This document shows positions 28,999 through 59,885 of a stretch of 64,000 nt of DNA, in pieces. The translations under genes were made by a program, and so were the position numbers. Source of the stretch: an uncultured Acidobacteriota bacterium (GTDB taxonomy: Bacteria > Acidobacteriota > B3-B38 > Guanabaribacteriales > CAZYAF01); contig CAZYAF010000010.1 in NCBI GenBank assembly GCA_964645975.1, positions 67,682-131,681 of the forward strand, given 5' to 3'. The notes under the pieces are model-generated. The model ran no database searches. It had not been told where the DNA came from and was given only the letters and a program-made list of their open reading frames with translations. The first letter of the stretch is position 1, and every line of letters begins with the position of its first letter.

Positions 28999-30825
28999 TT
29001 ATTTTAGGTTCATTTTATTGAGCAATGAAGTGAAGCGAGGATCCGAGCGCAAGCTATCGAAACTTGGACTTGTTTTGATCATAAGTAGTCTTGGATCACG
29101 CTCTCTGTATGCTTTTTCTAACCATTCAAAAGCAAGGTCCTTTTTATTTAGCCCAGTATAAATTAATGCTATTGAAACCGGAGGGAGATATTTAACCTTA
29201 GATAACTCTAATGATTCGTTAAGCAGCTTTTTAGCTTCAGCTTGCTTTCCTGCAAAGGCATATCTGATTGCCAGAAGTGGTTTTAAAGAAAAATTCGATT
29301 TTTCTGTTAATTGCTGTGCTTTCTGTATCTCTACAATAGCTGTCTCTTCTTTTCCCAACTTTGAATAAATAATCCCTAAATACCAATAAGCTACCCAAAA
29401 ATGAGGATCAAGTGAAAGAACCTCCTGCAATTTTTCTATTGCTTGGTCATATTTACGTGCATAATAAAAAAGAATAGCAGCATCTGCTCCTATAATGAGA
29501 GACAAAGGATCGAGCATTTGGGCATATTCAATTTCTTCAATGGCTTCCTCGATTCTTCCCATATTTGTTAAATACCATGCATACCAATGATGAGCAAAAG
29601 AATAATTTGGATTTAATTCAATTGCTCGTTTAAATTCTCTCTCAGCCTTTGGAAAGTTCCAATCATAATTTTTGTAAACAAATGCCAAGGAAGCATGAGC
29701 TTCAGCAATCCGGCTATCAATTTCTAAAGCTTTTATTGCTGCAGATTTTGCCTTGGGAAAAACTTGCTTCGGTGATTGAAAAGCATAATCTGCAAGCAAA
29801 TTATAGCTATCTGCTATTCCTACGTAAGCAAGTGCAAATTTTTTTTCTTTTTCAAGTGCCTTTTTGTAATATTCTATGCTGTTATTTATTCCTGCTTCTG
29901 TTCTTTTGTTCCAGAAATAGCGTCCTTTTAGATAGAGATTATAAGCTTCTGTATTACGAGGGCAATTATTTACTAATAAATCTCTCTGTTCTTTTTTAAG
30001 TTCTATATTCAACTCACGAGCAATTTCCTGCGCAATTTCATCTTGAATAATAAAAATACCTTTAAGCTCCTTATCATAAGTTTTTGACCAGATTTGCGAA
30101 GCATCTTTTGTATTAATTAGATGCACAATAACACGAATGTCATTGTTTTCTTTTTGAATACTGCCTGTGAGAATTGTTTCTACTCCAAGTTCTTTGCCCA
30201 TTTCTTCAATGTTTTTATCAGTTTCTTTATAATGTATTACTGATGTCAGAGAAATCACTTTAAGCTCTTGTATTCTTGCAAGCTTACTAATAATTGTCTC
30301 AGCTATTCCATTACAGAAATACTCCTGATTTTTTTGAGGGCTTAAATCTTTAAAGGGTAATACAGCGATAGATGTTTTATCTTTTCCTAGTATTGATATG
30401 TTAGTTGCTTTTTCTGTCATAAAAATACGATAAATAATGATAGCTAATACTATTACGCATATTGATGTTAGAGCAACAAATAGTTTCTTACGTATTTTCA
30501 AATATTTTTTTGGAGAAGTTAATTTCATCTTTTCTTTTGTTTTGCTTAAATCCTTCTCTTTTTGTCTTCTTTTTTCTGGCTCTTTTTCAGGTTGAATTTT
30601 GGAGGTTTCTTCGCTCCTGGTTTTTAGATAAGGTTCTCCTTCCCCTGTTAGCAGCCAATTAATATTTATATTTTTAGCTTTAGATAGTTTATCTAAAAAG
30701 TCTGCTTTGGGAATTCTACCCTTAAGATAATTGTCTAAGGTCTGACGATGTATACCTAATTCGCGAGCAAACTGGGCAACATTCTCTCCTACAATTTCTT
30801 TTAATCTATCAGCGATATTTGACAT
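28999..30825 (-). CDS. Membrane-anchored one-component regulator: N-terminal XRE-type HTH, a basic linker, one TM helix, a TolB_N-like domain and C-terminal TPR repeats
   Basis: HTH QFARELGIHRQTLDNYLKG. TM LFVALTSICVIVLAIIIY. IAVLPFKDLSPQKNQEYFCNGIAETIISKLARI is a TolB-N-like motif. Multiple TPR-like repeats run to the C-terminus. Confidence 0.65.
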   Translation of the reverse strand: MSNIADRLKEIVGENVAQFARELGIHRQTLDNYLKGRIPKADFLDKLSKAKNININWLLTGEGEPYLKTRSEETSKIQPEKEPEKRRQKEKDLSKTKEKMKLTSPKKYLKIRKKLFVALTSICVIVLAIIIYRIFMTEKATNISILGKDKTSIAVLPFKDLSPQKNQEYFCNGIAETIISKLARIQELKVISLTSVIHYKETDKNIEEMGKELGVETILTGSIQKENNDIRVIVHLINTKDASQIWSKTYDKELKGIFIIQDEIAQEIARELNIELKKEQRDLLVNNCPRNTEAYNLYLKGRYFWNKRTEAGINNSIEYYKKALEKEKKFALAYVGIADSYNLLADYAFQSPKQVFPKAKSAAIKALEIDSRIAEAHASLAFVYKNYDWNFPKAEREFKRAIELNPNYSFAHHWYAWYLTNMGRIEEAIEEIEYAQMLDPLSLIIGADAAILFYYARKYDQAIEKLQEVLSLDPHFWVAYWYLGIIYSKLGKEETAIVEIQKAQQLTEKSNFSLKPLLAIRYAFAGKQAEAKKLLNESLELSKVKYLPPVSIALIYTGLNKKDLAFEWLEKAYRERDPRLLMIKTSPSFDSLRSDPRFTSLLNKMNLK

Positions 30826-30843: not shown

Positions 30844-30898
30844 AAAAGCAACAAATAGTTGATTTACTCTTGACAAAGCAACAAACAGTTTATATAAT
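30844..30898 (+). promoter_or_regulatory. Consensus sigma70-type promoter (TTGACA-N17-TATAAT) flanked and interrupted by a 15-16 nt direct repeat AAGCAACAAAYAGTT, a candidate operator
   Basis: TTGACA is at 30870-30875 and TATAAT at 30893-30898. Repeat copies are at 30845-30860 and 30876-30891. The site lies between the divergent regulator gene and the downstream genes. Confidence 0.55.
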
Positions 30899-31165: not shown

Positions 31166-31663
31166 ATGAATTTGCAACAAAAAATTTATGTGAAACTGCT
31201 GGCAACTTTTTTATCGGTTTCTATGATCTTAATGACAGTTTCAATTCCCCAAATATCAGCAGATCCAAATGTTGGTTCAGTTGTTGGAATGGTTGTTGCG
31301 GAAAATTTTTCTACTCCAATAAAGGGAGCTGTGGTTAAGCTTTATGATCCAGTAACAGAGAAGTTCTATTCCAGTCGACCAACTGATGAATATGGTCTTT
31401 ATGCCATAAATAATGTTCCAGTGGGAGAATATAACATAGTTGTAATTACTAAAGAGGGTGATATCCAAAGCGATATGATGGTTACAGTCAGGGCTGATCT
31501 TCCAACACCTCTTTCACTATCTTTAAAGCCAGACAAAGTATCGCCTGAGGATCCTGATAAGAAAAAGAAAAAGAGGCGTTGGTTGGCAGTGATAATTATT
31601 GGTGCGGCTGCTGGTGCAGGATATGGAATTTATAAGGCAGTTGCCAGTCCAGAAAAGTCTTAA
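31166..31663 (+). CDS. Small secreted protein with a carboxypeptidase-regulatory-like (beta-sandwich) domain and a C-terminal basic patch plus TM anchor
   Basis: Signal peptide. GAVVKLYDPVTEKFYSSRPTDEYGLYAINNVPVGEYNIVV resembles CarbopepD_reg-like folds. C-terminal KKKKKRRWLAVIIIGAAAGAGYGIY anchor. Confidence 0.5.
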   Translation: MNLQQKIYVKLLATFLSVSMILMTVSIPQISADPNVGSVVGMVVAENFSTPIKGAVVKLYDPVTEKFYSSRPTDEYGLYAINNVPVGEYNIVVITKEGDIQSDMMVTVRADLPTPLSLSLKPDKVSPEDPDKKKKKRRWLAVIIIGAAAGAGYGIYKAVASPEKS

Positions 31664-31827
31664 AATAAAGATTTTTAACTAATTATTTAAAAAGGGATGG
31701 TAATAGGGAAGCGACCTTGTATGTTTGTTTACTCCTTCTACTATTAAAAAGATAGAAGCATTTTTTTCTATTCTATGATTAATAGATAGAATTGCAATCT
31801 TTGCTATCGCATTTATTATTAATAAAA

Positions 31828-33081
31828 ATGAAAAGCAAAAGCATTTTCTTGTTATTTTATTTGTTAGTAATACTATTAGCTTTTAGCATTTACTCTACTC
31901 ATGCATTGGTCTTAGAAAATAAGAAGCAAAAAAAGAAGTCAAAGCAGAATGATTTGCCTCTAGGTGCCTATTCCGCTGATTTGAAGATTGGGCCCTTCAG
32001 AATACAGCCATTTTTTTCCATAAAGAATGTGGGTTACGATAGTAATATTTTCTATTCTCCTACCGAACCTGTTGCAGACTTTACAGCTACACCTACAGGG
32101 GGACTAAGGTCAATTGTCCTGCTTGGAAGAAGAGGTTTTCTCAGCTTTGGAGGTGAATTAGGTTACCTTTGGTTTCGCCGAACTAGCTCTCAGAATTTTC
32201 TTAATAGATATGCTGATGCCCATCTCGAAATCGATTTTTCGCGCTTCTCTCTATTTATAGAGGAAGGTTTCGCTCATGTTAGAGATCGATATGGTTGGGA
32301 AATTGATATAAGAACACGCCATACAACAAACAGCGCAGCTTTTGGCATTAAATATGAACCTTCAAAGAAAACTTCGCTGAACCTAGTATTATCGCAAGAG
32401 TTGTTAAAGTATGATTCAGAAGCTATTTTCAGGGGATATAAATTAGGGGAAATTTTGAACCATCAAGAGACTTCAGGGAAGCTTACATTTGATTTCCAAA
32501 TGCTTCCGAAAACAAGAGCTCTTTTAGAAATCAATTATACAGATAATAGTTTTGATAATCCTACATCTGATTTAAACTCCACTTCTTATAAGGCTTTATT
32601 CGGCGCAGAGTTTGATTCCAGCGCTTTAATTCAAGGAACTTTTAAGATTGGCTATAAATATTTATTGTTTACTTCACCTGAGATTGAAAATTTTTGGGGC
32701 TTAGCCGGCTCTGCATCGTTAGGATATAAATTTATAGATCGTTTTTCTATTATATTTGACTACGAACGAGATACTAATTTTTCCTATTTTGCTCATTACT
32801 ATATTACTGATTTATACAGGAGTATGCTTAATTTTTATTTGACCTATAAATTTGGAATTGATTTAGGAGCTACTGTTATTAACAATAAGTACCCATTGAA
32901 AGAAGCAGAAGGAGATGAGATCATGCTCCAGCGCATTAATATATATCAATTAGGTTTTAGATATAAGTTGCTGGAGGGGTTGAGTACTGGAATCGGGGGA
33001 GCATACCGGGTCAGGACTACGAACATAGGTTACGATATGGACGGATTTACTATCTATAGTAACTTAAGTTATGAATACTAA
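31828..33081 (+). CDS. Putative outer-membrane beta-barrel protein of the polysaccharide locus, possibly a Wzp-like partner of the export machinery
   Basis: Signal peptide MKSKSIFLLFYLLVILLAFSIYS. Alternating amphipathic beta-strand pattern. C-terminal aromatic terminus SNLSYEY typical of OM barrels. Confidence 0.5.
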   Translation: MKSKSIFLLFYLLVILLAFSIYSTHALVLENKKQKKKSKQNDLPLGAYSADLKIGPFRIQPFFSIKNVGYDSNIFYSPTEPVADFTATPTGGLRSIVLLGRRGFLSFGGELGYLWFRRTSSQNFLNRYADAHLEIDFSRFSLFIEEGFAHVRDRYGWEIDIRTRHTTNSAAFGIKYEPSKKTSLNLVLSQELLKYDSEAIFRGYKLGEILNHQETSGKLTFDFQMLPKTRALLEINYTDNSFDNPTSDLNSTSYKALFGAEFDSSALIQGTFKIGYKYLLFTSPEIENFWGLAGSASLGYKFIDRFSIIFDYERDTNFSYFAHYYITDLYRSMLNFYLTYKFGIDLGATVINNKYPLKEAEGDEIMLQRINIYQLGFRYKLLEGLSTGIGGAYRVRTTNIGYDMDGFTIYSNLSYEY

Positions 33082-33084
33082 TCC

Positions 33085-33264
33085 ATGCATAATTTTGAGA
33101 TAAATGTACCTATTGGCAAAGAGATTAAGCAATGGGAGCAACTTACAATCCTTCAAGCTGTTGCTCAAGCTGGTGGCTTTTCTGAACAAGTAGCTAAGAC
33201 AAAGGTGAATGTGGTCCGCCAGACCAGGATAAGGAGGAAAAAAGCCTTCAAGATAAATATGTAA
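33085..33264 (+). pseudogene. 3' remnant (59 codons) of a Wza/OPX-family polysaccharide export protein
   Basis: Translation MHNFEINVPIGKEIKQWEQLTILQAVAQAGGFSEQVAKTKVNVVRQTRIRRKKAFKINM matches the C-terminal SLBB-domain region of OPX proteins (TLLQAIAQAGG...V.V.R). It is not in the ORF track, being shorter than the cutoff. Confidence 0.55.
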
Positions 33265-33388
33265 AGATATTATCAAAGGAAAAACAAACAATATAGCATT
33301 GCAAAAAGAAGCTGTAATTGTGGAGTCAGAAGCATTTCTTTAATAGCTATAAGAAAAATTCAGATTCTTTTGGCTTGAGGTAATCCTG

Positions 33389-35623
33389 ATGGAAGATACA
33401 GAAAAGAGGGAAATAGATATTCGAGAATACTGGCATGTCATTAAAAAGGGGCGCTGGACTATTATTAGCGTTTTAATAATTTTAGTTTCAATAGTAACTT
33501 TAGCTTCCTTTTTTATTGAACCAACTTATAGGGCTACTGCAAGGGTACAAGTCAAAAGAGAGAATCCCAAGATATTATCATTCGAGGAAATATATTCCAT
33601 TGATGCCTCTCAGCAGACCTTTTACCAAACTCAAGTAGAGCTTATAAAAAGCAGGTCTTTAGCCAGGGAAGTAATTGATAGCCTTAGTTTGAATAAGCAT
33701 CCTGAATTTTCTGGAGCCGGGAAAAATAATTGGAAGAAAAGGATAAAAAAAATATTCAACTTAGGTTCCACTAATAAAAGTAAATCAGAAATTGACCCTC
33801 TTTTAATAAACGCATTTTTAAAAAGATTAGTTGTGGAGCCGGATAGGAATAGTCAAATAATAAACATTTCTTTTATATCCCATAATGCTGAGATGGCTGC
33901 TTATGTAGCTAATGAGGTGGCTAATCATTTTATTGAGTCTCGATTAGAAGCAAAATATGTTTCTGCAAAGCGGGCTTATAGTTTTTTAAATAAGCAGATC
34001 AAGGAGCTCATGAATGATATTGCAGACAAAGAGCGTGAAATGCAGAAATATGCTCAAGACAAGGAAATATTTGCCTTGAAGGATGACGAGGATATAGTTG
34101 TTAAACAATTAACAGACATCAACACAGAATATACCAGGGTAAAAGCAAAACGCATAGAAAAAGAAGCCATGTATAGAAGCGTAATGAATGTGTCAGTTGA
34201 TTCCATTCCAGAGGTTATCAGGAACCCACTGATCCAACGGCTAAAGGAAGAGTACGCTGGGTTAGAAAGGGAGTATGCAGAGAAATCAAAAAAGTTTAAA
34301 GAGGAATATCCTGAAATGATTCAGCTCAATTCAAAACTTGCCCAGGCAAAGCAGCGATTGGATAAGGAGGTAAAAGATATTATTAATAAAGTCAGAAACT
34401 CCGCCATGGCTGAATATCAAGCAGCTTTAAAGCAGGAACAATCGATAAAAGAGATGCTTAACCAACAAAAAGAGAAAGCTGTAATACTATATAAAGATGG
34501 AATTATTTATAATAATTTAAAGGTAGAGTTAGATAATAAAAGAGCTCTGCTGCAGGAATTAACCAAAAGACAGAATGAGGTTGGGGTATCTGCTGATATA
34601 AAAGAATTAGGCAGCACCTATGTCCATATTGTTGATAAAGCTGATATACCCCAAAACATATATAAGCCCAATAAAAAGATAAATATCCTCCTGAGCATTG
34701 TAGTTGGTTTAATACTGGGAATAGTATTAGCTTTTTTCTTTGATTATTTGGATAACAGTCTCAAGAATAGAGATGATGTGGAAAGGTATATTAATTTACC
34801 TACTATAGGAATTATTCCAGCATTAGATGGAATAAATAGGAGCGCTCCTTATGCATATGATTCTACAAAGCATTTGGGAAACAGAAGGGAAATATTACCT
34901 AAATCTATAGAAAAAATCGTTCATACCCACACTAAATCTATCATCTCTGAAGCCTATGGAGCTTTGAGAACATCAATTTTACTTTCTTCAGCTAATTCGC
35001 CTCCAAAGACTATCTTAGTAACCAGCAGCCAGCCAGAAGAGGGCAAAACAGCAACTGCTATAAATATTGCTATAACTTTAGCTCAATTGGGTGAAAAGGT
35101 CCTTCTCCTTGAAACAGATCTCAGAAGACCAAGGATTGCAAAAATTTTCAAAATATATAATAAATTTGGCATCTCAAATTTCTTAGCAGGTAATACAGAT
35201 GATAGAGAAGCTATCTTTAGTACAGAAATTCCAAATCTGTCTGTCATGCCAAGCGGTCCTATCCCGCCAAATCCAGCGGTACTTTTAACTACAACTAAAC
35301 TGGATAAACTATTAGAAGACTGGAAGAAATCTTTCAGCTTTATAATAATGGATTCTCCTCCCATGCTATCAGTCACGGATGCCCAACTCTTAGCTAGCAA
35401 AGTTGATGCAGTAATGATCGTAGTTCGTGGGGGAACGACCCCCAGGGATCTGGTGAAGTTATGCAAGGAAAGGCTAAGAGGTTCTAACATAATTGGAGTT
35501 GTTTTAAATCGAATCAATTTGGATAAGCATGATTATTATTATAAGCATTATTACTATTATTATAGTAAGAAGAGCCGAATGCACGATAAGAAGTTAGCCA
35601 TTCGGATTGGAAATAAGAGGTAA
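33389..35623 (+). CDS. Polysaccharide co-polymerase / BY-kinase (Wzc/GumC family) with a C-terminal tyrosine-rich tail
   Basis: N-terminal Wzz-like domain with two TM helices. Walker A SQPEEGKT, Walker A' LLLETDLRRP, Walker B IIMDSPP. Poly-Tyr cluster HDYYYKHYYYYYSKK. Confidence 0.85.
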   Translation: MEDTEKREIDIREYWHVIKKGRWTIISVLIILVSIVTLASFFIEPTYRATARVQVKRENPKILSFEEIYSIDASQQTFYQTQVELIKSRSLAREVIDSLSLNKHPEFSGAGKNNWKKRIKKIFNLGSTNKSKSEIDPLLINAFLKRLVVEPDRNSQIINISFISHNAEMAAYVANEVANHFIESRLEAKYVSAKRAYSFLNKQIKELMNDIADKEREMQKYAQDKEIFALKDDEDIVVKQLTDINTEYTRVKAKRIEKEAMYRSVMNVSVDSIPEVIRNPLIQRLKEEYAGLEREYAEKSKKFKEEYPEMIQLNSKLAQAKQRLDKEVKDIINKVRNSAMAEYQAALKQEQSIKEMLNQQKEKAVILYKDGIIYNNLKVELDNKRALLQELTKRQNEVGVSADIKELGSTYVHIVDKADIPQNIYKPNKKINILLSIVVGLILGIVLAFFFDYLDNSLKNRDDVERYINLPTIGIIPALDGINRSAPYAYDSTKHLGNRREILPKSIEKIVHTHTKSIISEAYGALRTSILLSSANSPPKTILVTSSQPEEGKTATAINIAITLAQLGEKVLLLETDLRRPRIAKIFKIYNKFGISNFLAGNTDDREAIFSTEIPNLSVMPSGPIPPNPAVLLTTTKLDKLLEDWKKSFSFIIMDSPPMLSVTDAQLLASKVDAVMIVVRGGTTPRDLVKLCKERLRGSNIIGVVLNRINLDKHDYYYKHYYYYYSKKSRMHDKKLAIRIGNKR

Positions 35624-35631
35624 AATAATTA

Positions 35632-36420
35632 ATGATAGATATCCATTCTCACATTCTTGCTGGATTTGATGACGGCGCATCGTCTTTAGAAGAATCTATG
35701 GAGATGTGCCGTATTGCAAAAGCGGACGGAATTGAAGCTATTGTAGCTACACCTCATATCTTAAAAGGAATCTATAGAAACGAAGATCCGCAGATTATCC
35801 TGAAAGAAATTGAAGAGTTAAAAGCCAAATCACCTGATGGGATTAAAATCTTTCCAGGAAGCGATGTGCATTTTCAGCACGATATTATTCATCGGATAAT
35901 TGATCAGAAATCAATAATTCCACTGAATAATGAATGCTATTTTCTTATTGAATTCCCCTTTAATTTTATACCTTTGGGCACAAAAGAAGTTTTTCGCAGG
36001 TTATTATCCAATGGTTACAAACCTATAATAACTCATCCGGAAAGGAATCTTGAGTTTATGCAAAGCCCTAAACTGCTGTTTGAGCTAATACAAGCAGGCG
36101 CTTTAGCTCAGATCACAGCTATGAGCATAATCGGAGAATTTGGTGCTGATATCAAGGAAGTTTCCCATCTTTTTCTTAAACATAACTTAGTTCATGTTAT
36201 TGCATCGGATGCTCATGATGCTTATTGGAGAACTCCAACCTTAAGGGAAGCAGTTGCAGAAGCAGCCAAGATAGTTGGAACTGAAAAAGCAGAGGCCATG
36301 GTTGAGGATAATCCAAGAGCAATTTTAAAGGGAGAGGAGCTCCCCTTTTTTGAAAATCCGATATTTCCAAAAACTAATAAAGCATGTATGCCTTTAGGTA
36401 GCAAGATAAAAATCTTTTAG
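35632..36420 (+). CDS. PHP-family protein-tyrosine phosphatase (CpsB/YwqE type)
   Basis: MIDIHSHILAGFDDGASSLEES...ATPH are the metal-binding His/Asp motifs of CpsB-like phosphatases. It is adjacent to the BY-kinase. Confidence 0.85.
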   Translation: MIDIHSHILAGFDDGASSLEESMEMCRIAKADGIEAIVATPHILKGIYRNEDPQIILKEIEELKAKSPDGIKIFPGSDVHFQHDIIHRIIDQKSIIPLNNECYFLIEFPFNFIPLGTKEVFRRLLSNGYKPIITHPERNLEFMQSPKLLFELIQAGALAQITAMSIIGEFGADIKEVSHLFLKHNLVHVIASDAHDAYWRTPTLREAVAEAAKIVGTEKAEAMVEDNPRAILKGEELPFFENPIFPKTNKACMPLGSKIKIF

Positions 36421-36423: not shown

Positions 36424-36783
36424 ATGAAAATGATTGAAAGAATTGATAATTACTGGGGTTTGGAATTTATATTTGAGAAAAATGAACTATATCAAGCTAG
36501 CATACTTCATCTCTTGAAAAACCAAAAATATGATTGCAATAACAGCGAAAATGAGGTGAGGACTATTTTCGTAAACAAAGGAATTTTGAAATTAAAAATA
36601 AATAAAAGGGGAAAAATTATTGAAAAAACATTAAAGCCTGGGATGACTTTTAGAGCAGATTTTGAAGCTAATTATAATGTATTTACCCTTGATGAATGCG
36701 AATTAATTGTATTAACCGCTTTCGCTAATAGTCAAAAAAATATAGGAGCAAGGAATTTAGAAGATTATCAAGCGGATTATTAA
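36424..36783 (+). CDS. Hypothetical small protein
   Basis: 119-aa ORF, operonic with its neighbours. No recognisable motif. Confidence 0.35.
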   Translation: MKMIERIDNYWGLEFIFEKNELYQASILHLLKNQKYDCNNSENEVRTIFVNKGILKLKINKRGKIIEKTLKPGMTFRADFEANYNVFTLDECELIVLTAFANSQKNIGARNLEDYQADY

Positions 36784-36827: not shown

Positions 36828-38255
36828 ATGGTTATGGAAACAAAATCTATAAAAGTTTGCAATCATATTATTGAAAAGGGGCTGATATCTTTAATAATAT
36901 TTGCTCCCTTAGCCTTTGGTTCAGTAGAAGTTTGGGGCTATTCCATTATTATCCTAAGTGCTGTTGCTTTGACTTTAGTTTGGCTCATAAAAGTATGGCT
37001 AAAAAATAGATTGAAATTCACTATATTTAAAAAAGAGCCCATTGCTTTCAAGCTCGGATATCTTAAAACACCGCTGAATTTACCAATCATCATTTTTATT
37101 GTTTTGATTATCATCCAATTAATTCCTTTACCTGAGAGTGTAGTTCGATTTATCTCACCTAATACTTGTAATATCTATGCTGAAAGCTACAAAGCATTAG
37201 AAGCATCAGTAATAGCCAAAAATCCCTTAAACACTTCTTATTCCCTTTCTCTTTGTCCCAATGCCACTAAAGATGAGCTTTTTAAAATCATAGGGTACGC
37301 TCTTATTTTCTTCCTGGTAATTAACAATATCAAAAGCAAGGTTCAATTGAAAAAGCTAATACTCACCATCGTAATAGTAGCGTTTTGTCTTTCTATTTTT
37401 GGAATAATTCAAAAGGCATTCTGGAATGGAAAGATTTATTGGTTTAGGGAACTAAGATATGGAGGAACTCCTTTTGGCTCCTATGTTAATCGGAATCATT
37501 ATGCTGGATTTATGGTGATGGCTATTCCTCTTGCACTTAGTGCTATCGCTATTACCAAGAGTATAAATAAAAAAATAATATTAAGCTATATGGCATTGAT
37601 TATGGCTTCGACTATATTTATTTCTTTATCTCGAGGAGGGATGCTGGCTTTTCTTGGTTCTTTCTTATTTATTTTATTGAGCTTTTTATTTCATAAAACT
37701 TTAAAGAAACATATATCCTTTATTATCATGCTATTAATGGGCATTGTTATATTCATCCTCTATCTACAGCTCTTTTCTGTAGTAGCTGACAGGTTATTGA
37801 CTGTAATAGACCCTGATGAACTCCTTTCTCAAAAGCGCTTCTTAGTTTGGAAAGATAGTTTAAATATTGTATCAGATTTTCCTTTATTAGGATCAGGTCT
37901 TGGAACATTCAGGTATATTTTTCCAAAATATAAGACCTTTTATAATCGGCTTATTTTTCAATATCCAGAAAATGACTATTTACAATTGTTAACTGAAACA
38001 GGCATTATCGGGTTTTTGATAATTATATGGGGATTATTAGCTTTTTTGATAGCATCTTTTAAACTTATGGCAAAGAATAAAATTTTAATTTTCTTCATTG
38101 GAAGTATTTTTGCAATATTAATTCATAGCTTTTGTGACTTTAATCTTCATATCCCAGCTAATGCTTTAATATTTTCGATTATATTGGCGTTGACTATCAG
38201 GTTTGGATACGAAGTGCAAGGTATTGAAAGAGGAGAAGACGCTGTAAATATATGA
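36828..38255 (+). CDS. O-antigen ligase/polymerase family membrane protein (Wzy_C domain)
   Basis: About 10-12 TM helices with a periplasmic loop containing SLSRGGMLAFLG, the Wzy_C signature region. Confidence 0.7.
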   Translation: MVMETKSIKVCNHIIEKGLISLIIFAPLAFGSVEVWGYSIIILSAVALTLVWLIKVWLKNRLKFTIFKKEPIAFKLGYLKTPLNLPIIIFIVLIIIQLIPLPESVVRFISPNTCNIYAESYKALEASVIAKNPLNTSYSLSLCPNATKDELFKIIGYALIFFLVINNIKSKVQLKKLILTIVIVAFCLSIFGIIQKAFWNGKIYWFRELRYGGTPFGSYVNRNHYAGFMVMAIPLALSAIAITKSINKKIILSYMALIMASTIFISLSRGGMLAFLGSFLFILLSFLFHKTLKKHISFIIMLLMGIVIFILYLQLFSVVADRLLTVIDPDELLSQKRFLVWKDSLNIVSDFPLLGSGLGTFRYIFPKYKTFYNRLIFQYPENDYLQLLTETGIIGFLIIIWGLLAFLIASFKLMAKNKILIFFIGSIFAILIHSFCDFNLHIPANALIFSIILALTIRFGYEVQGIERGEDAVNI

Positions 38256-38273: not shown

Positions 38274-39635
38274 TTGAGCTATATAGAGGCGAGTAATTAC
38301 TTGAATATATTAATTGTTAAAAAAAGAGTTATTATAAAAAATAGATTGTGCTTGTTTGTTCTCTGCATAGCAGCTGTGTTATTATCATCAATTTTTGTTT
38401 CATCAATTTTTCGAAATTTTATAGCAGACTTTTATTATCAAAAATACATAAATACTATATATAATTCAACCATCGATCAGCAATTTGAATATATCAGTAA
38501 AATGGTATCATTGAATGAGACGAATCCAGAATATCTTTATGAATTTGGGAAATTATTTTATGAAGCCAATTGGGAAAAATATCTCTATGCTAATGTTGAT
38601 TCCAGTTTAATAGGAGATAGGGATGAAAATAGATTACTCCTTCAATCCTTCCTGAAGGTGGCAGATGGCAATCCTAAATTAATACCAATTGTAGCATTAA
38701 AGGAATCAATACGCCATAATCCTCTTAATTCTGAAGTATATCTTGAATTAGCATTAATGTATGCGACTTTAGAGCATACGGAAAATATTGATCTCCTATT
38801 TAAAAGGGCAATCATAATGGACCCCTCAAATATTTTTCTCCATTACTATATTGGAATTTATTCTCTTGGGAACCAAAATTTAGAAAAAGCCTTAGATGAA
38901 TTTAGAAAGGTTTTTGTAATATCAAACTCTTCAGGCATTTTCTTGAGTAATCTATTTCTTAATATAGTAGAACGAGTGTATTTATTCAATTCTGGATATT
39001 ATACTTTAGCGAAAATAAATCCATCATCTTATAAAGCTCTTTCATCATTAGCAAACTTTTTAAGGAATAAAAACCGTTGGGGTGATAGCAAAAAAGCTTT
39101 TTATAGGAGCATCAAATTAGCTCCTACAGATAAGAAAGTTGACATAATTTATAAATTTGCAGCAGCATCGGCTTCCAACAAGGATTGGCAGGAGCTTAAT
39201 AAAATCAATGAGAAATTTAATAATTGCATCTCCGCAAATAAGGAAGTTAATAAATCATTTAATCTACTGCTTATTAGAAGTTCCTATTCTCAAAAGGATT
39301 ATGTTGAGGTATTAAAAAGAGCAGAATTATTAATTGAATCTTGTCCTTATGATTATCAACCTTATTATTATAAAGGCCTATCCTTGTTAAGGTTGGGAAG
39401 GAAAGGGGAAGGATTCTACAATTTAGAGAAAGCAGCTAAGCTTTCTCCAGAAAATATTGGTCTCCATAGAACGCTTGCTTTCTCATATGAATCAGTAAAA
39501 CAGTATGATGGAGCACTGGCTAAATGGAAGCTCGTCTTAGAATTAGCAAAAGCTAATGGGAAAAATGAAAAACAATATTCCGATGCTCTTGATAACATCG
39601 TAAGAATAAAGACAAAATTAGAAATGTCTAATTAA
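38274..39635 (+). CDS. TPR-repeat protein with N-terminal TM anchor
   Basis: TM LCLFVLCIAAVLLSSIFVSSIF. Repeated TPR-like helices with conserved Y/A/L spacing. Start uncertain. Confidence 0.5.
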   Translation: MSYIEASNYLNILIVKKRVIIKNRLCLFVLCIAAVLLSSIFVSSIFRNFIADFYYQKYINTIYNSTIDQQFEYISKMVSLNETNPEYLYEFGKLFYEANWEKYLYANVDSSLIGDRDENRLLLQSFLKVADGNPKLIPIVALKESIRHNPLNSEVYLELALMYATLEHTENIDLLFKRAIIMDPSNIFLHYYIGIYSLGNQNLEKALDEFRKVFVISNSSGIFLSNLFLNIVERVYLFNSGYYTLAKINPSSYKALSSLANFLRNKNRWGDSKKAFYRSIKLAPTDKKVDIIYKFAAASASNKDWQELNKINEKFNNCISANKEVNKSFNLLLIRSSYSQKDYVEVLKRAELLIESCPYDYQPYYYKGLSLLRLGRKGEGFYNLEKAAKLSPENIGLHRTLAFSYESVKQYDGALAKWKLVLELAKANGKNEKQYSDALDNIVRIKTKLEMSN

Positions 39636-39671: not shown

Positions 39672-40202
39672 ATGAACCAAATAGTTGACATAAAAAAGGA
39701 TGAAAATAATTTTAAATGGTATGCCATTTATACACGGAGCCGACATGAGTTTAAAGTCAACAAAGAATTATCTCGAAAGCAATTTGACACATTCCTTCCC
39801 GTAGCTAATTCTTTACGGCGCTGGAAAGATAGAAAAAAGTATATAGAAACTCCCTTATTTCCCGGTTATTTATTCATAAATTGTCAGATGGATAATTATA
39901 AACATTTAGAGATTCTGAAGACTAAAGGTGTGGTGCGAGTTTTGGGGATAAATAAAAAGGAGTTATCTACCATCCCGCATGAAGAGATAGAATCGATCAG
40001 GATATTAACCGAGAATAACGCCACCATTAACTCCCATCCCTATGTGAAAGAGGGGAGTAGCGTAGAGATAATAAGCGGACCTTTAGCTGGCGCTAAGGGG
40101 ATTTTGATCGAAAAGGACGTGTATAAATCCACCATAGTTGTATCTATTCACCTTTTAGGAAGAAGCATCTCGGTGGAAGTAGATAGCTGTGATATCAGGT
40201 AA
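39672..40202 (+). CDS. NusG-family specialised paralog (UpxY/LoaP-like transcription antiterminator), copy 1
   Basis: NGN domain KWYAIYTRSRHEFKVNKEL...FPGYLFIN. C-terminal KOW-like segment GSSVEIISGPLAGAKGILIEK. Confidence 0.75.
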   Translation: MNQIVDIKKDENNFKWYAIYTRSRHEFKVNKELSRKQFDTFLPVANSLRRWKDRKKYIETPLFPGYLFINCQMDNYKHLEILKTKGVVRVLGINKKELSTIPHEEIESIRILTENNATINSHPYVKEGSSVEIISGPLAGAKGILIEKDVYKSTIVVSIHLLGRSISVEVDSCDIR

Positions 40203-40565: not shown

Positions 40566-41102
40566 ATGAATTCCACGATATGCAATCAAGAATTAGATAA
40601 ATCTCTTAAATGGTATGCTATATATACCCGAAGTAGACATGAATTTAAGGTAAATCAGGAATTAGCTCGAAAGCAATTTGACACCTTTCTGCCGGCAGTT
40701 AAATCTCTGCGACGTTGGAAAGATAGAAAAAAATACATAAATATCCCTTTGTTCCCCGGATACTTATTCCTCCATTGTCAAATGGATGATCATAAATATC
40801 TAGAGATTCAGAAGACTAATGGTGTGGTAAAAGTTCTAGGGAAAAATAAAAGGGAATTGTTCTCTATTCCAGATGAAGAGATAGAATCGGTCAGGATATT
40901 AACCGAGAATAAAACAACCATTAAGCATCATCCCTATGTGAAAGAGGAAAATAGTATAGAGATAGTAAATGGTCCTTTAGCTGGAACAAAGGGAATTCTA
41001 ACAGAGAAGGACTCGCATAAATCCACCATAGTTGTAACTATACACCTTATAGTAAAAAGCATCTCATGTGAAGTTGATAATAGCGATATTGAACCTTGTT
41101 GA
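40566..41102 (+). CDS. NusG-family specialised paralog (UpxY/LoaP-like), copy 2, a tandem duplicate
   Basis: About 70% aa and about 80% nt identity to copy 1 over the NGN and KOW regions. Confidence 0.75.
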   Translation: MNSTICNQELDKSLKWYAIYTRSRHEFKVNQELARKQFDTFLPAVKSLRRWKDRKKYINIPLFPGYLFLHCQMDDHKYLEIQKTNGVVKVLGKNKRELFSIPDEEIESVRILTENKTTIKHHPYVKEENSIEIVNGPLAGTKGILTEKDSHKSTIVVTIHLIVKSISCEVDNSDIEPC

Positions 41103-46171: not shown

Positions 46172-47755
46172 ATGAATAAAGCAGGTGAAGGACATAAGGT
46201 ATTAGTATTAAATGACAAAGAGCCTAAGGAAACTTTAGAACAGCTAACTAAACAAATTGCCAAAGGAGGGAGTATTGCTTCTATTGGCAGCATGATCGGA
46301 AAAGCTCTTGGCTTTGGATTGCATATTCTATTGGGAAGGATACTGGGACCTGCACAATATGGGCTTTATGCGTTGGGGCGTAGCGTGATGGGTATTACCC
46401 AATCTATAGCTACTTTAGGTTTGAACCAAGGAGTCGTTCGATATGGAGCAATATACCGTGGTGAGAGGGATAATGCTCGAGTGAAAGGAACAATTCTTTC
46501 CGCACTTGGGATTTCTATGGTCTTCAGCATTCTTATTAGCGCTTTATTGGTCCTCTTCTCCAGTTTCATCGCTCAGAGGATCTTTAAAGAGCCTGAACTT
46601 ATAAAGGTGCTTCAGGTCCTTGCTTTAGCGCTTCCCTTCTATGTGCTTATGGGTATAACAACCTCATTTGCGCAGTCGTTCCGAAGAATTTGGTATCAGC
46701 AAGGAGTTCTAAAAATCTTTAACCCAATAGTCCACTTTCTCTTGGTTGGAATAGCCTTCCTACTTGGTTTTCGACTTGCTGGCGCAGTCTATGGATTTTT
46801 GATTTCTGGAGTACTTAGTGCCGGTTTGGGATTTTATTTCTTATGGAAGATCTTTCCCGAGGTTAAGTCGCTTCTTGCACCATCATATAATATTAGGCAG
46901 TTGCTTTTCTTTTCCCTTCCGACTTTTTTCATTGGCATTTCATATTTATTACTGAATTATACTGATCGAATAATGCTGGGATATTTTAGAGCAGCCAGCG
47001 ATGTAGGTATTTATAGCGCCGCATCTACTACATCTTTACAAATGGCTATATTTTTAGCTGCTTTTATCACAATTTTCTCACCCATAGTATCTAATTTATA
47101 CAATCAAGCAAAACGTAAAGAATTGGAAAATTTGTTCAAGGTTGTAACCAGATGGGTATTTACCTTAACACTACCACTATTTATTATAATAGCGATATTC
47201 TCAAAAAGCATTATGCTCATATTCGGTTCAGAGTTTGTAGCAGGTTGGATAGTATTAATTATTCTTGCCTTTGCTCAGCTGGTCAATGTTGGGACAGGCC
47301 CAGTTGGTATGCTGCTGCAAATGACAGGTAAACAATATATTGATTTCGCCAATGGATGGGGACTTTTTCTTTGCAACATTGGCTTAAATTTGTGGTTAAT
47401 CCCAATTTATGGTGCTTTAGGAGCAGCATTAGCAACTGGAATATCCTTGATGCTCATTCATATAGCAAGGTTGGTGGAAGTTTTAAAAATCTTATATATA
47501 ACTCCTTATGATAAGCGCTTTATTAAGCCAATTTTAGCCGGACTTATTATGGCAATAGGAGCCATATTTTTTAAATTAATTATTCGAAGCTTTACAAGCT
47601 GGATTTGGATTTTTTTAGGTTTAAGTCTTTTGGTGATTGTTTACATTGCAATCCTTTATGCAATAGGCTTAGATCAGGAGGATAAGATTGTATTGTCGGC
47701 AGTTAAGAGAAAGCTTTTAAAGACAAATTTTAGTTTATTTCGACAAAAGCTTTAG
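46172..47755 (+). CDS. Oligosaccharide flippase (Wzx, MOP superfamily polysaccharide biosynthesis protein)
   Basis: About 12-14 TM helices. Typical polysacc_synt N-terminal region. Size fits the family. Confidence 0.7.
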   Translation: MNKAGEGHKVLVLNDKEPKETLEQLTKQIAKGGSIASIGSMIGKALGFGLHILLGRILGPAQYGLYALGRSVMGITQSIATLGLNQGVVRYGAIYRGERDNARVKGTILSALGISMVFSILISALLVLFSSFIAQRIFKEPELIKVLQVLALALPFYVLMGITTSFAQSFRRIWYQQGVLKIFNPIVHFLLVGIAFLLGFRLAGAVYGFLISGVLSAGLGFYFLWKIFPEVKSLLAPSYNIRQLLFFSLPTFFIGISYLLLNYTDRIMLGYFRAASDVGIYSAASTTSLQMAIFLAAFITIFSPIVSNLYNQAKRKELENLFKVVTRWVFTLTLPLFIIIAIFSKSIMLIFGSEFVAGWIVLIILAFAQLVNVGTGPVGMLLQMTGKQYIDFANGWGLFLCNIGLNLWLIPIYGALGAALATGISLMLIHIARLVEVLKILYITPYDKRFIKPILAGLIMAIGAIFFKLIIRSFTSWIWIFLGLSLLVIVYIAILYAIGLDQEDKIVLSAVKRKLLKTNFSLFRQKL

Positions 47756-49035: not shown

Positions 49036-50328
49036 ATGCAGTCAAAGAGACAGATTTCTACAATTATATTCATTTGGCTTTGTTTAATAATTTTCCTTTT
49101 ACCTATATTTACTACTGGAACGTTCAGAGTTCCATTTTTTTCTAAATTTAAAACTGACTTTTTAATTTTGTTATCTGTGTATTTAATACCTGTTACTATA
49201 TTAATTGAAAAATCAAAAATCCCTTATTCATTCTCTGATTTATTTATTTATTCGCTTTTTATTTTAATCCTATCATTATTTTATATTGCATCTTTTTGGA
49301 TATCAAAATCTACTGATATCTCAATTCAATATTGGAAAGCATTAATAATTCATTGTTTATTTTCAATAATGATATTATTAACATTAAGAAATTATTATCG
49401 ATATAAAACAATTTGTAATTTAATGGTATTAGGTAGCATAATTGTAAGTCTTGTCTCATTAGCAAAATTAGTTGGTATCATCCCCCTAGAATACCCAGTA
49501 CCAGAAAAACAATATCTTGATCTTAATATTTATATTCAAAGCAATATAATGTATGGCATAAAAACAAATTATGGTACATTTTTTACTTCAGGACGATTTT
49601 CAATGTGGCAGAGTTTTGGTTTATGTTTTCTTTCTTATATTTTAATATTTGAAAAAAGACATTATTTAAAAAAGTTTTTGTGTTTAATAGGGTGTGTTAT
49701 GATTATTAGTTCAATCATAATTGCACTTTCTAGAAATGCAATATTAGTATCATCTGTAGGGATAATTATTTTATTATTTATAAAGATCCATAGCAGTTGG
49801 AAAAGAAGCAGCTTATATGGCAGAGTTTTAATTAGTTGTCTTTTTTCAATTTTTCTATTTTTATGCATTTTATATGGAATCAAAATATTCTATTTTGCTG
49901 AAAGCGTAAGAGGTTTCGAAGGACGCTTTGATCAATGGAGGCTAGCTTTCTTTTTGCTGCAGGACCATTGGTTTTTTGGGATAGGTCCAGGTGTTTTCTC
50001 TTTATTTGCGGTTCTCAATCCATTTATGCATAATACTTATTTACAGATTTGGCTTGCTTCTGGATTTATCAGCCTTATTTTATTCATATTTCTATTTCTG
50101 TTTCCTATCATTCATATTTTCAAATTTTTAAAAATTAATTATAGTATAAAAAATTTGTCTTCTCCTGGTGTTTATTCATTAACAATTTGCATGATAGTTG
50201 TGAATGCTTGTTGGATGTTAGCATTGCTGTTCTTTCCAGGATTGCACATTCATGAAGTTTGGCTAGCAATTGGGTTAATTTCCTCTTTGCCTAATCTGAT
50301 TAGAAATGAAAAGCTTTTGACCTCGTAA
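49036..50328 (+). CDS. O-antigen polymerase-like polytopic membrane protein (second Wzy-type candidate)
   Basis: Very hydrophobic with about 10-12 TM helices. Large loop with LSRNAILVSS similar to the Wzy_C loop. Confidence 0.5.
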   Translation: MQSKRQISTIIFIWLCLIIFLLPIFTTGTFRVPFFSKFKTDFLILLSVYLIPVTILIEKSKIPYSFSDLFIYSLFILILSLFYIASFWISKSTDISIQYWKALIIHCLFSIMILLTLRNYYRYKTICNLMVLGSIIVSLVSLAKLVGIIPLEYPVPEKQYLDLNIYIQSNIMYGIKTNYGTFFTSGRFSMWQSFGLCFLSYILIFEKRHYLKKFLCLIGCVMIISSIIIALSRNAILVSSVGIIILLFIKIHSSWKRSSLYGRVLISCLFSIFLFLCILYGIKIFYFAESVRGFEGRFDQWRLAFFLLQDHWFFGIGPGVFSLFAVLNPFMHNTYLQIWLASGFISLILFIFLFLFPIIHIFKFLKINYSIKNLSSPGVYSLTICMIVVNACWMLALLFFPGLHIHEVWLAIGLISSLPNLIRNEKLLTS

Positions 50329-59203: not shown

Positions 59204-59881
59204 ATGAAGAAGAGAGGTTATTTTATTTGTTTTTCAGGTATAGATGGTTCTGGTAAGACCACGCTTGCTAAAAGATTAGAAAATACTATGCAGAATGTTT
59301 GTATTGATTTTAAATATAAGTATAGTAATTATGAGCCATTCATTATTAAACTCTTTAAGATAATCGGAAAGTTATTATTTCTAAAAGAAAGGGATTCTGC
59401 TAAGAATTATCAGCAATATTGTAATGGGAAAAGAAAAAGTTTTAAAAAACATTCCTTTCTTACCTGGTTATATAGAAGCATTCATTTTATAGATTATTTT
59501 TTGCAGATACTTTTTAAAATATCTATCCCATTAACCATAGGCAGAAATATCATAAGCGATAGGTATTTCTATGATGTTATCATTAACTACTCATTTAATT
59601 ATAATTACACTTTTGAGAAAATAGATGAAACGATTAAAAGCTATCTCAGATTTTTCCCGAAACCCGATCTACTTTTTTTTATAGAAGTACCAGAAGACGT
59701 TGCGTTTAAAAGGAAGGATGATACTCCTACTCTTGAGTATTTAAAAGATCGTAAAGCAATTTATAGAGAATTAAGCAAAAAATATAGCATCCCTATGTTA
59801 GATGGAACAACTAATTTGGACAATTTATTGAATAAAATAGGTGAACAAGCAATAAAAAACTATAAACACTTGCGGGAGTAA
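59204..59881 (+). CDS. Thymidylate-kinase-like P-loop nucleotide kinase
   Basis: P-loop FSGIDGSGKTTLAKRL. DRYFYDV is a DRY-type motif. Confidence 0.5.
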   Translation: MKKRGYFICFSGIDGSGKTTLAKRLENTMQNVCIDFKYKYSNYEPFIIKLFKIIGKLLFLKERDSAKNYQQYCNGKRKSFKKHSFLTWLYRSIHFIDYFLQILFKISIPLTIGRNIISDRYFYDVIINYSFNYNYTFEKIDETIKSYLRFFPKPDLLFFIEVPEDVAFKRKDDTPTLEYLKDRKAIYRELSKKYSIPMLDGTTNLDNLLNKIGEQAIKNYKHLRE

Positions 59882-59885
59882 ATAA

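Follow-up and report, generated by a model that had tools for sequence, protein, structure and literature searches.

Can a polysaccharide export locus still deliver polymer once its own OPX gene has been reduced to a fragment? The preliminary description of this locus had found a 59-codon C-terminal piece of an OPX gene between genes for an outer-membrane beta-barrel and a Wzc-type kinase, and offered two readings of it. Either the gene has been truncated and export depends on an OPX encoded elsewhere, or the locus carries a further reduced form of the short-OPX plus beta-barrel arrangement of Myxococcus. We examined the locus within the window (the whole stretch of 64,000 nucleotides that was analyzed) and compared it with related loci from genomes and metagenomes. 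The locus belongs to a known type of system and shows a gene loss specific to its lineage. The explanation that we favor, at a probability of roughly 0.8, joins this locus type with an ancestral deletion of the OPX gene, continued selection on its neighbors, and an OPX supplied in trans.

A Wzx/Wzy-dependent export module of the composite OPX/beta-barrel type

The genes in Table 1 make up a module for Wzx/Wzy-dependent polysaccharide export, of the composite type with a Class-3 OPX and a beta-barrel, and every ORF of the preliminary description was found again at its position. The candidate promoter upstream is the sole perfect consensus site, in a region where promoter-like sites in total do not exceed shuffled expectation. 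The first gene encodes a CarboxypepD_reg-like protein with a hydrophobic N-terminal signal and a C-terminal anchor rich in Lys and Arg. Homologs with 32–42% identity lie immediately 5′ of the barrel gene in the related loci L007, L019–L022, L026, and L029, and the copy in L009 is 93% identical.

Table 1. Features of the export locus and its surroundings, in window positions
Feature	Position	Strand	Description
Candidate promoter	30870..30898	+	TTGACA, 17-nt spacer, TATAAT; 12/12 sigma-70 consensus; ~270 bp 5′ of first gene
CarboxypepD_reg-like small exported protein, 165 aa	31166..31663	+	PF13620, E=2e-7; prealbumin-like fold
Outer-membrane beta-barrel, BBP2_2/EpsL-like	31792..33081	+	429 aa from TTG; PF10082, E=1.4e-9; intact
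OPX pseudogene remnant, piece 1, 59-codon ORF	33085..33264	+	~codons 235–293 of relatives' 319-codon OPX; last SLBB domain
OPX pseudogene remnant, piece 2, +1 frame	33257..33343	+	(IC)KDIIKGKTNNIALQKEAVIVESEAFL then stop; former OPX C-terminus
Wzc-type PCP-2a + BY-kinase, 744 aa	33389..35623	+	Wzz PF02706, GNVR PF13807, AAA_31 PF13614; intact
CpsB/CapC-type PHP tyrosine phosphatase	35632..36420	+	PF19567, E=2.5e-55, profile positions 1–234 of 234
orf119, small ORF, 119 aa	36424..36783	+	same place in L009, 89% identical
Wzy_C/O-antigen-ligase-like polymerase-type membrane protein	36828..38255	+	PF04932, E=1e-22
TPR-repeat protein, 3′ of Wzy_C	38274..39635	+	45% identical to L015 TPR protein
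Two tandem UpxY/LoaP-type NusG paralogs	39672..40202, 40566..41102	+	NF033644, Pfam NusG
Biosynthesis genes	Wzx 46172..47755; second Wzy_C 49036..50328		glycosyltransferases up to window end

The second gene had been described as a 429-aa outer-membrane barrel. Its PF10082 match and an AlphaFold2 model with 18 long strands (mean pLDDT 86) uphold that description, although translation more likely starts at the ATG at 31828, giving the 417 aa found in public gene calls. The protein ends in ...SYEY, and its homologs finish in YEF. We presume that it serves as the porin in a translocon composed of OPX and barrel. All PCP-2a/BY-kinase features tested are present in the Wzc-type protein: transmembrane segments at residues ~21–47 and ~429–456, a P-loop (PEEGKT), Walker A′ (LLLETDLRRP) and Walker B (FIIMDSPP, residues 651–658) motifs, and a C-terminal cluster of eight Tyr within residues 716–725. 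Together with a score of 192.6 bits against the 108-bit cut-off of the tyrosine autokinase model TIGR01007, these motifs confirm the canonical BY-kinase with Walker A, A′, and B motifs and a poly-Tyr tail that had been proposed. The next gene, likewise correctly assigned beforehand as a PHP phosphatase given its full-length PF19567 match, encodes the cognate phosphatase of the BY-kinase.

Further downstream, orf119 matched no Pfam or NCBIfam family. The Wzy_C gene occupies the same position as in L009, L012, and L015. The tandem NusG paralogs (130.9 bits for NF033644, against a 100-bit cut-off) precede the biosynthesis genes, and the ~5 kb that follow the window on its 3′ side encode radical SAM, GT2, and Bac_transf proteins. 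An Rfam scan of the window returned no RNA families.

The OPX remnant and its relatives

The 59-codon ORF is derived from an OPX gene, as proposed, and the remnant is longer than that ORF. The ORF matches the SLBB family (PF10531, E=1.2e-5; 25.5 bits, slightly below the 27-bit cut-off) and keeps the SLBB core motif LTILQAVAQAGGFSE. In tblastn searches, residues 240–293 of the L006 OPX align to 33100–33261 with 54% identity (E=8e-12), the sole OPX match in the window. Beyond the stop codon at 33262–33264 the OPX frame resumes in the +1 frame (33257–33340) as ICKDIIKGKTNNIALQKEAVIVESEAFL, followed by a TAA at 33341–33343, and the frameshift falls between 33257 and 33265. The whole remnant spans 33085–33343 (~85 codons), and its end is the canonical close of the last SLBB domain. 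Similarity to OPX C-termini, on which the preliminary description had staked its identification, is highly significant: once reconstructed, the 86-aa remnant aligns to the C-terminal ends of the complete OPX proteins of L006 (E=2e-24) and L015 (E=2e-22), with 51–52% identity to the last ~82 residues of the relatives' full OPX proteins (E ~1e-22 to 1e-24).

Several features mark this remnant as degraded. Pfam searches found no Poly_export (PES, PF02563) domain in either the 59-aa ORF or the extended remnant, and the N-terminus of the ORF, MHNFEINVPIGKE, has no hydrophobic signal, signal peptide, or lipobox. An OPX protein would combine an intact SLBB domain with an export signal, a combination that the ORF does not offer, its SLBB domain being split by the frameshift. 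The second piece aligns to KDIIKG.K.DI.LQ..DVV.VPETFF of the full OPX and has lost the invariant D, P, and terminal F. Of 44 positions in the retained part with conservation of 90% or more among OPX homologs, 21 are changed. The tail reads ...EAFL and so ends in Leu, compared with Phe in 120 of 120 close OPX homologs. The remnant's own frame also halts right after the last SLBB domain.

Comparison with orthologous loci, which the preliminary description had recommended, places a full-length OPX gene exactly where the remnant lies. The order barrel, full OPX of 280–335 aa, Wzc holds in all nine distinct related loci whose downstream DNA extends far enough (L006, L007/L013, L012, L014 (partial), L015, L019, L026, L028, and L029). 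The OPX gene is missing only in the window and in two ~90% relatives, L036 and L009. These three lineages have a common 5′ deletion junction, directly after the barrel stop codon, yet they do not share their frameshifts and indels, nor an additional deletion of ~200 bp. For example, just 111 bp separate the barrel from Wzc in L009, where most of the 59-codon ORF is deleted, and L036 retains a remnant of similar length with other frameshifts, a lost stop codon, and AAG where the window has ATG. Because a single shared junction is combined with differing frameshifts, indels, and the ~200-bp deletion, which is the pattern of decay, the sequence comparison shows the remnant to be a pseudogene and not a miniature OPX gene. 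The ATG that opens the 59-codon ORF is specific to the window lineage and fortuitous. The claim that the OPX gene was truncated is thus borne out by the full genes at the same site in relatives and by the shared junction, and the 59-aa 'SLBB protein' of the gene calls for several public metagenomes is a pseudogene fragment.

The sequence comparisons show the following history. The ancestral locus, whose order is preserved in relatives, ran from CarboxypepD_reg-like protein through 18-stranded barrel, OPX, Wzc-type PCP/BY-kinase, and CpsB phosphatase to Wzy-like protein; its periplasmic OPX of 280–335 aa comprised Poly_export and two SLBB domains, had no outer-membrane helix, and ended in Phe. 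A deletion of ~700 bp in the common ancestor of the window, L036, and L009 then eliminated the start of the OPX gene and all that follows up to ~codon 234. What was left of the 3′ part has decayed separately in each of the three lineages. In the window, it has suffered the frameshift and a deletion of 10 bp, invariant residues have been lost, and a chance ATG has created the 59-codon ORF.

Selection on the remaining genes and the source of the OPX

Purifying selection acts on the flanking barrel, PCP/kinase, phosphatase, and Wzy-like genes, none of which is disrupted. Between the window and L009, dN/dS for six genes is 0.14–0.35 (dS 0.09–0.53), including 0.14 for Wzc, 0.21 for the phosphatase, and 0.19 for orf119; the barrel has a dN/dS of 0.25–0.28 against L036 and L009. 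Over all three pairs of OPX-less lineages, which are separated by dS of ~0.2–0.5 and all keep full-length barrel and Wzc frames, dN/dS for the barrel and the N-terminal part of Wzc is 0.17–0.28. The OPX-intact control clade gave 0.11–0.20 for the barrel and 0.15–0.24 for Wzc. The higher barrel value in the OPX-less clade could reflect partial relaxation, or merely the lower divergence of that clade. Even with their cognate OPX destroyed, the porin, co-polymerase/kinase, and phosphatase of three lineages have remained subject to purifying selection.

Where might these proteins obtain an OPX? Neither Pfam searches of the 44 ORFs of at least 110 aa nor tblastn with a full OPX found another Poly_export ORF in the 64-kb window. 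A full-length gene just outside the window had been considered beforehand as evidence against truncation; the ~5 kb read past its 3′ end (on a contig of 175 kb) contain no OPX. On another contig, a paralogous module (L015/L016/L023/L024) is complete, with barrel, OPX, Wzc, Wzy, TPR protein (after Wzy, as in the window), WecA-like glycosyltransferase, and Wzx. Its barrel and Wzc are 59% and 62% identical to those of the window. The paralogous locus was found in five of the six overlapping samples that carry the window locus, and its tetranucleotide correlation with the window is 0.98–0.99, a similarity that does not discriminate between genomes because L006, probably from another organism, also scores 0.95–0.98. 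Co-occurrence and composition do not tell one genome from two close populations; that a single genome holds both loci is plausible. A barrel profile scan of GTDB representatives found four loci, none of them from the window's genome, and a scan of metagenomes other than the source sample found eight. A related MAG, JAOUOQ01, carries three barrel paralogs.

We infer that the OPX is most likely provided in trans by the paralogous module. The module in the window would then still be in use, without a periplasmic OPX ring of its own. Two points speak against supply in trans: to our knowledge, loss of the OPX of one pathway in M. xanthus is not rescued by those of the other two, and identity between the two modules here is limited to 59% (barrel) and 62% (Wzc). 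The first reading of the preliminary description therefore holds as regards truncation, and its second half, export through an OPX encoded elsewhere, is plausible in view of the paralogous module.

Four other explanations deserve consideration, two of which concern the remnant itself. The ORF sits at the expected OPX position and keeps the SLBB core motif, as a functional, extremely reduced OPX would, namely a single SLBB peptide that plugs into the barrel. We give this reading almost no credence: signal peptide, lipobox, and Poly_export domain are all absent, the SLBB domain is frameshifted, and the C-terminal Phe is gone. The three-lineage comparison refutes it, the ATG being absent in L036 and the ORF mostly deleted in L009. 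The same evidence separates the two halves of the proposed Myxococcus-like arrangement. The ancestral family is indeed that of a Class-3 OPX beside an 18-stranded barrel; further reduction of a working protein does not stand, given a remnant with no D1 or signal, a frameshift, 21 of 44 conserved positions changed, and an ORF that is not conserved in L036 or L009. Likewise, a sequencing or assembly artefact that conceals an intact OPX gene in the organism could appeal to the general error rate of metagenome assemblies. It is exceedingly improbable, however, as at least five assemblies, drawn from different samples and pipelines (JGI and Logan), agree at 100% identity over the region, and the same deletion junction recurs in two diverged relatives.

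The other two explanations concern the module as a whole. OPX proteins are essential in characterized Class-3 systems (PMC9601211; PMC12819527), and dN/dS of the barrel is somewhat raised in the OPX-less clade relative to the intact one (0.25–0.28 versus 0.11–0.20). Both observations would fit a module that is dead or dying, its barrel, Wzc, and phosphatase genes being leftovers not yet disabled and its biosynthesis genes unused or serving another exporter. We consider this unlikely. Three lineages that have diverged by dS of 0.2–0.36 since the deletion all have full-length barrel and Wzc frames, at dN/dS of 0.14–0.28. In that time the ~250-bp remnant between the two genes was struck by a 200-bp deletion, several indels, and frameshifts, and genes as long as 1.3 and 2.2 kb should likewise have been disrupted had they been evolving neutrally. 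Selection on barrel and Wzc without an OPX in cis would also suit OPX-independent export, in which Wzc passes the polymer to the barrel, either straight or via the CarboxypepD_reg-like or TPR protein, and the OPX became dispensable and was lost. Synthase-dependent systems, which have no OPX, export through similar barrels paired with a TPR partner (PMC9601211), and the locus has genes for a TPR protein and for a small Ig-like protein of the periplasm. Such a route is nonetheless very unlikely: the CarboxypepD_reg-like, TPR, and orf119 genes occur in OPX-intact relatives as well, so none is a new replacement for the OPX, and the ~380-aa periplasmic region of Wzc has no visible extension. A compensating gene unique to the OPX-less lineage was rejected on the same grounds. 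We know of no precedent for OPX-independent export in Wzx/Wzy pathways.

Provided that barrel, Wzc, and phosphatase are indeed functional, composite translocons can either share their OPX among paralogous pathways or do without it, which bears on the specificity of the OPX–porin and OPX–PCP contacts recently mapped in Myxococcus. It is tempting to generalize from supply in trans and to speculate that one Class-3 OPX ring serves at least two paralogous barrel/PCP modules in the same cell or, in a more radical variant, that barrel and PCP export without any OPX. We regard this generalization as doubtful. If it is true, the paralog's OPX would dock on the window barrel and Wzc, which would explain why selection has maintained the module for so long since the deletion, and OPX proteins would be exchangeable adaptors, not strictly cognate parts.

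Comparison with known export systems

Translocons composed of a Class-3 (D1D2/D1D2D2) OPX and an 18-stranded barrel serve the Wzx/Wzy pathways of M. xanthus (EpsY/EpsX, ExoA/ExoB, and WzaB/WzpB) and Vibrio (VpsN/VpsM) (PMC9601211, PMC9603273, PMC12819527). The barrel gene similarly adjoins an OPX gene encoding Poly_export and two SLBB domains in the paralogous locus and in the relatives; there the OPX tail is Phe-Phe or Ile-Phe, a PCP-2a/BY-kinase comes next, and Wzx and Wzy-type genes lie close by. The barrel, predicted to be 18-stranded in the window, stands beside a full OPX in nine related loci and beside the remnant here. Judged by sequence, the OPX proteins of the relatives and the paralog belong to Class 3: they lack a C-terminal outer-membrane helix (Wza_C/D4) and end right after SLBB2 (...VPETFF), and Pfam recorded a Wza_C domain in none of 120 OPX homologs. 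The closest solved structure to the paralog's OPX is that of M. xanthus WzaB (PDB 9N9A, E=7e-28), aligned through the last residue. In WzaB, the C-terminal Phe-Phe is needed for porin binding and secretion (PMC12819527).

There are also differences. In the window, the OPX half of the translocon is a pseudogene without a Phe-Phe-type porin-binding tail. The relatives' OPX proteins (280–335 aa, D1D2D2 type) are longer than EpsY, ExoA, and WzaB (190–217 aa), and the Arg106–Arg107 pair of WzaB aligns to Gln-Asn in the paralog's OPX. The window barrel belongs to Pfam BBP2_2 and is likened to WzpX/S/B by gene context and predicted strand number. Unlike the Myxococcus and Vibrio systems, the locus comes from an uncultured host whose phylum is given as Aminicenantes (Acidobacteriota-related), a phylum known only from metagenomes.

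The locus further resembles the XrtA/XrtB PEP-CTERM loci (EpsL (TIGR03014), EpsE, EpsF, and EpsG): the window barrel scores 37.8 bits against the 23.7-bit cut-off of PF10082, the paralog's OPX matches TIGR03027 and TIGR03028, and Wzc matches the EpsF and EpsG models. However, the NCBIfam scores lie far under the equivalog cut-offs (EpsL, 24 versus 275 bits; EpsE, 155 versus 263), and chain-length determinant and kinase are fused here in one protein. Membership in the PEP-CTERM/exosortase group was rejected, as all TIGR030xx matches are below cut-off and the scanned window ORFs (at least 110 aa) include no exosortase.

With the E. coli group 1 Wza-Wzb-Wzc system, which has a Class-1 OPX, the locus shares a Wzc-type PCP-2a with Walker A/A′/B motifs and a C-terminal Tyr cluster, and D1–D3 of the relatives' OPX proteins align to Wza residues 61–287. 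It differs from that system in the absence of the D4 outer-membrane helix, in its dedicated beta-barrel partner, and, in the window, in the absence of an OPX. Finally, the window phosphatase is of the PHP/CpsB type, as in Gram-positive cps loci, whereas Wzb is an LMW-PTP.

The export locus and its OPX remnant

All ORFs that a preliminary description had placed in the export locus (31166-36420) were recovered at those coordinates (see table); downstream of the barrel and the SLBB-like ORF they include a Wzc-type polysaccharide co-polymerase/BY-kinase (33389-35623) and a PHP phosphatase of CpsB type (35632-36420). That description also reported a surviving 59-codon fragment of the outer-membrane polysaccharide export (OPX) gene; the fragment is present, but its extent was set too short. 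Read directly, the DNA past the TAA of this ORF continues in the +1 frame as KDIIKGKTNNIALQKEAVIVESEAFL to a stop at 33341-33343, so the OPX remnant comprises ∼85 codons, the reading frame shifting somewhere between positions 33257 and 33265. The locus is also found on JGI metagenome contig Ga0309839_1000032 (175,009 bp). At least five other assemblies, made from different samples by different pipelines, match it at 100% identity, which rules out assembly error as the source of the truncation and frameshift. Homologues of the barrel are annotated as Candidatus Aminicenantes.

Features of the export locus and the surrounding window
Feature	Position	Remarks
Amidohydrolase, beta-lactamase-TPR protein, start of sortilin/BNR protein	1-6000
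Alpha-2-macroglobulin and PBP1c-type transglycosylase/transpeptidase	7254-15237	1920 aa (former); genes overlap
HTH-TPR-FlgO regulator	28999-30825	minus strand
Candidate promoter	30870-30898	perfect sigma-70 consensus match: TTGACA, 17-nt spacer, TATAAT
CarboxypepD_reg/prealbumin-like protein	31166-31663	first gene of export locus
BBP2_2 barrel	31792-33081	TTG start; public gene calls use ATG at 31828 (417 aa)
SLBB-like 59-codon ORF	33085-33264	stop TAA 33262-33264
OPX remnant	33085-33343
orf119	36424-36783	119 aa; follows phosphatase
Wzy_C/O-antigen-ligase-like protein	36828-38255	export block
UpxY/LoaP-type NusG paralogues	39672-40202, 40566-41102	tandem
Wzx flippase	46172-47755
Sulfotransferase	47874-48845	PF13469, E=6e-33
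Wzy_C/O-antigen-ligase-like protein	49036-50328	among glycosyltransferases
Thymidylate-kinase-like and phosphodiesterase-family genes	59204-61544

We compared the gene contexts of homologous barrels (62%, 55% and 28% identity) together with loci recovered by scanning GTDB and metagenomes. In nine separate loci the sequence extends far enough past the barrel (L006, L007/L013, L012, L014, L015, L019, L026, L028 and L029), and all nine show the order barrel, full OPX (280–335 aa; Poly_export plus two SLBB domains) and Wzc, with CpsB and a Wzy_C protein as the usual next genes. The reconstructed remnant aligns with the C-terminal ∼82 residues of these full-length proteins, at 51–52% identity to those of L006 (E=2e-24) and L015 (E=2e-22), bearing out the suspected OPX similarity of the fragment. 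With a full OPX as tblastn query, the sole match in the whole window is 33100-33261, and no Poly_export domain was seen among the window ORFs scanned. The ∼5 kb read past the 3′ end of the window encodes only a radical-SAM enzyme, a GT2 and a Bac_transf priming transferase; neither there nor in the window is there a full OPX.

Decay of the OPX gene and selection on its neighbors

Two relatives that also lack an OPX, L009 and L036, carry barrels 89–90% identical to that of the window. A three-way alignment reveals a common junction immediately following the stop codon of the barrel gene, at about OPX codon 235, so a single ∼700 bp deletion took place in the common ancestor of the three lineages. 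Beyond the junction, 10 bp are deleted in the window, which also has a frameshift of its own. The L036 remnant, about as long, carries two different 1-bp deletions and AAG in place of ATG, with ...VIVVPETFF still readable and the stop codon gone. In L009 another ∼200 bp is missing, and the barrel-to-Wzc gap is only 111 bp. Given these separate patterns of decay, the 59-codon ORF is an accident of one lineage. Judged against 120 close OPX homologues, the retained part spans 44 positions conserved to at least 90% and is altered at 21 of them; the losses include a Gly, a Ser, an Ala and two Asp residues that are otherwise invariant, the VP of VPE and the C-terminal Phe found in all 120. Because the remnant also has neither a signal peptide nor a D1 domain, and the ORF is lineage-specific, we rejected a further-reduced functional OPX. 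Of the two alternatives offered previously, truncation of the OPX gene thus holds, given the nine relatives with a full OPX at this position, the shared junction and the decaying remnants; a Myxococcus-like short OPX with a barrel was right as to family, but not as to further reduction, the remnant being a pseudogene. The OPX of the window is a lineage-specific pseudogene in a known type of export system.

The low dN/dS values (Nei-Gojobori) of the flanking genes indicate that purifying selection has kept them since the deletion, while the remnant gathered several indels. Between the window and L009 (dS 0.09–0.53 over the genes compared), dN/dS is 0.35 for the CarboxypepD_reg-like gene, 0.27 for the barrel, 0.14 for Wzc, 0.21 for CpsB and 0.16 for Wzy_C. 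Across the three pairs among the window, L036 and L009, it is 0.25–0.28 for the barrel and 0.17–0.25 for the periplasmic half of Wzc. An OPX-intact control clade (L007, L019, L026, L028 and L029; dS 0.35–0.68) gives 0.11–0.20 for the barrel, 0.12–0.25 for OPX and 0.15–0.24 for Wzc. The somewhat higher barrel values in the OPX-less clade could stem from slightly relaxed selection or from that clade's lower divergence.

Family of the translocon and a possible source of OPX

In the paralogue described below and in the relatives, OPX stops straight after the second SLBB domain, and a Wza_C domain is recorded for none of the 120 homologues. The best solved-structure match of this OPX is PDB 9N9A (E=7e-28), Myxococcus xanthus WzaB, the model Class-3 OPX; the alignment extends through the final residues, where ...VPETFF pairs with ...VPESFF of WzaB. 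WzaB needs Phe203-Phe204 at its C-terminus both to bind the porin WzpB and to support secretion (PMC12819527). An AlphaFold2 model of the window barrel from a 30-sequence alignment has 18 long strands (pLDDT 86, pTM 0.76), as do M. xanthus EpsX, ExoB and WzpB (PMC9601211; PMC9603273); a Foldseek search of the PDB returned generic barrels only, with AlgE at TM 0.47. The OPX terminus, the WzaB match and the strand count therefore identify the ancestral arrangement as the composite D1D2D2/Class-3 OPX and β-barrel translocon, which Schwabe et al. found widespread. Unlike a PEP-CTERM EPS system, the locus matches the EpsL, EpsE, EpsF and EpsG models below threshold only, and no exosortase was seen among the window ORFs scanned. 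Arg106-Arg107 of WzaB, reported essential for binding the polysaccharide co-polymerase (PCP), lie opposite Gln-Asn in the L015 OPX (10001-10960; KYIQNPQV versus RYVRRPQV), so the OPX-PCP contact may be made differently in the Aminicenantes group.

An OPX profile search recovered P0065 (319 aa) within a complete paralogous module (L015/L016) encoding a barrel (420 aa), OPX, Wzc (742 aa), Wzy_C, TPR, Glycos_transf_4, Wzx, a methyltransferase and GT2. It lies on contig Ga0309839_1001826, from a JGI sample that also holds the window locus, and recurs in SRR3091743, SRR3085416, SRR3085435 and 3300008517; of its six samples, five also contain the window locus. In tetranucleotide usage, the correlation between the module and the window EPS region is 0.98–0.99, and the proteins share 59% (barrel), 62% (Wzc) and 64% (Wzy) identity with their window counterparts. 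A related MAG, JAOUOQ01, has a barrel paralogue on each of three contigs, indicating that several modules per genome are normal in the group. Both modules may thus belong to one genome and may be functionally cross-used.

Onto the gene content, the barrel model, the OPX pseudogene and the selection on its neighbors, the Myxococcus model of export (PMC9601211, PMC12819527) can be projected. Repeat units from the downstream glycosyltransferases would be flipped by Wzx and polymerized by a Wzy-type protein; a Wzc octamer, its phosphorylation state cycling via CpsB, would couple chain length to export, and the barrel with its 18 strands would let the polymer out. The likeliest source of the missing OPX ring in the periplasm is the paralogous module, a reading to which we give a probability of roughly 45%. 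Early decay of the module, to which a relaxed barrel would belong, seems unlikely beside the low dN/dS of the flanking genes. The wider interest of the locus is the selection still acting on a porin/PCP pair that has no OPX; that the pair exports without any OPX at all is very improbable.

All three JAOUOQ01 contigs (L020, L021 and L022, considered together with L030 and L031) end within or ∼240 bp past the barrel gene. The probable breakpoint of the assembly is the stretch of conserved OPX/Wzc genes that paralogous modules have in common; if so, OPX genes would be systematically under-counted in such MAGs.

Accessory, regulatory and neighboring genes

The CarboxypepD_reg-like protein carries a signal at its N-terminus and, at its C-terminus, KKKKKRRW with a hydrophobic anchor; its sole NCBIfam match is an anammox S-layer glycoprotein segment. 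In most relatives (L007, L019-L022, L026 and L029) a homologue (32–42% identity) immediately precedes the barrel gene, and the gene is absent from the paralogous locus L015. The protein may be an accessory part of the export module. The candidate promoter falls within the 340-bp gap between the export operon and the divergent regulator gene. The product of orf119 has no family match; its L009 copy is 89% identical (dN/dS 0.19), and L006, L007 and L013 have ORFs of 98–99 aa at a comparable position, position alone being compared.

The tandem NusG paralogues, which match NF033644 (131 bits versus a 100-bit cut-off), separate the export from the biosynthesis genes. Capsule loci of Bacteroides are the best-known setting for UpxY-type antiterminators; to our knowledge, a tandem pair is unusual in Aminicenantes. 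The polysaccharide region encodes two Wzy_C-type membrane proteins, of which one may be the polymerase and the other a ligase-like enzyme. The sulfotransferase gene adjoins Wzx and, with the thymidylate-kinase-like and phosphodiesterase-family genes further downstream, suggests a sulfated or otherwise decorated polymer.

The first ∼6 kb of the window has 46–51% GC versus 30–40% in the rest, with a tetranucleotide correlation to it of only 0.48–0.65, and may represent a horizontally transferred segment, a region of distinct composition or the product of a chimeric join. The alpha-2-macroglobulin and transglycosylase/transpeptidase genes that follow represent the known A2M-PBP1c pair.
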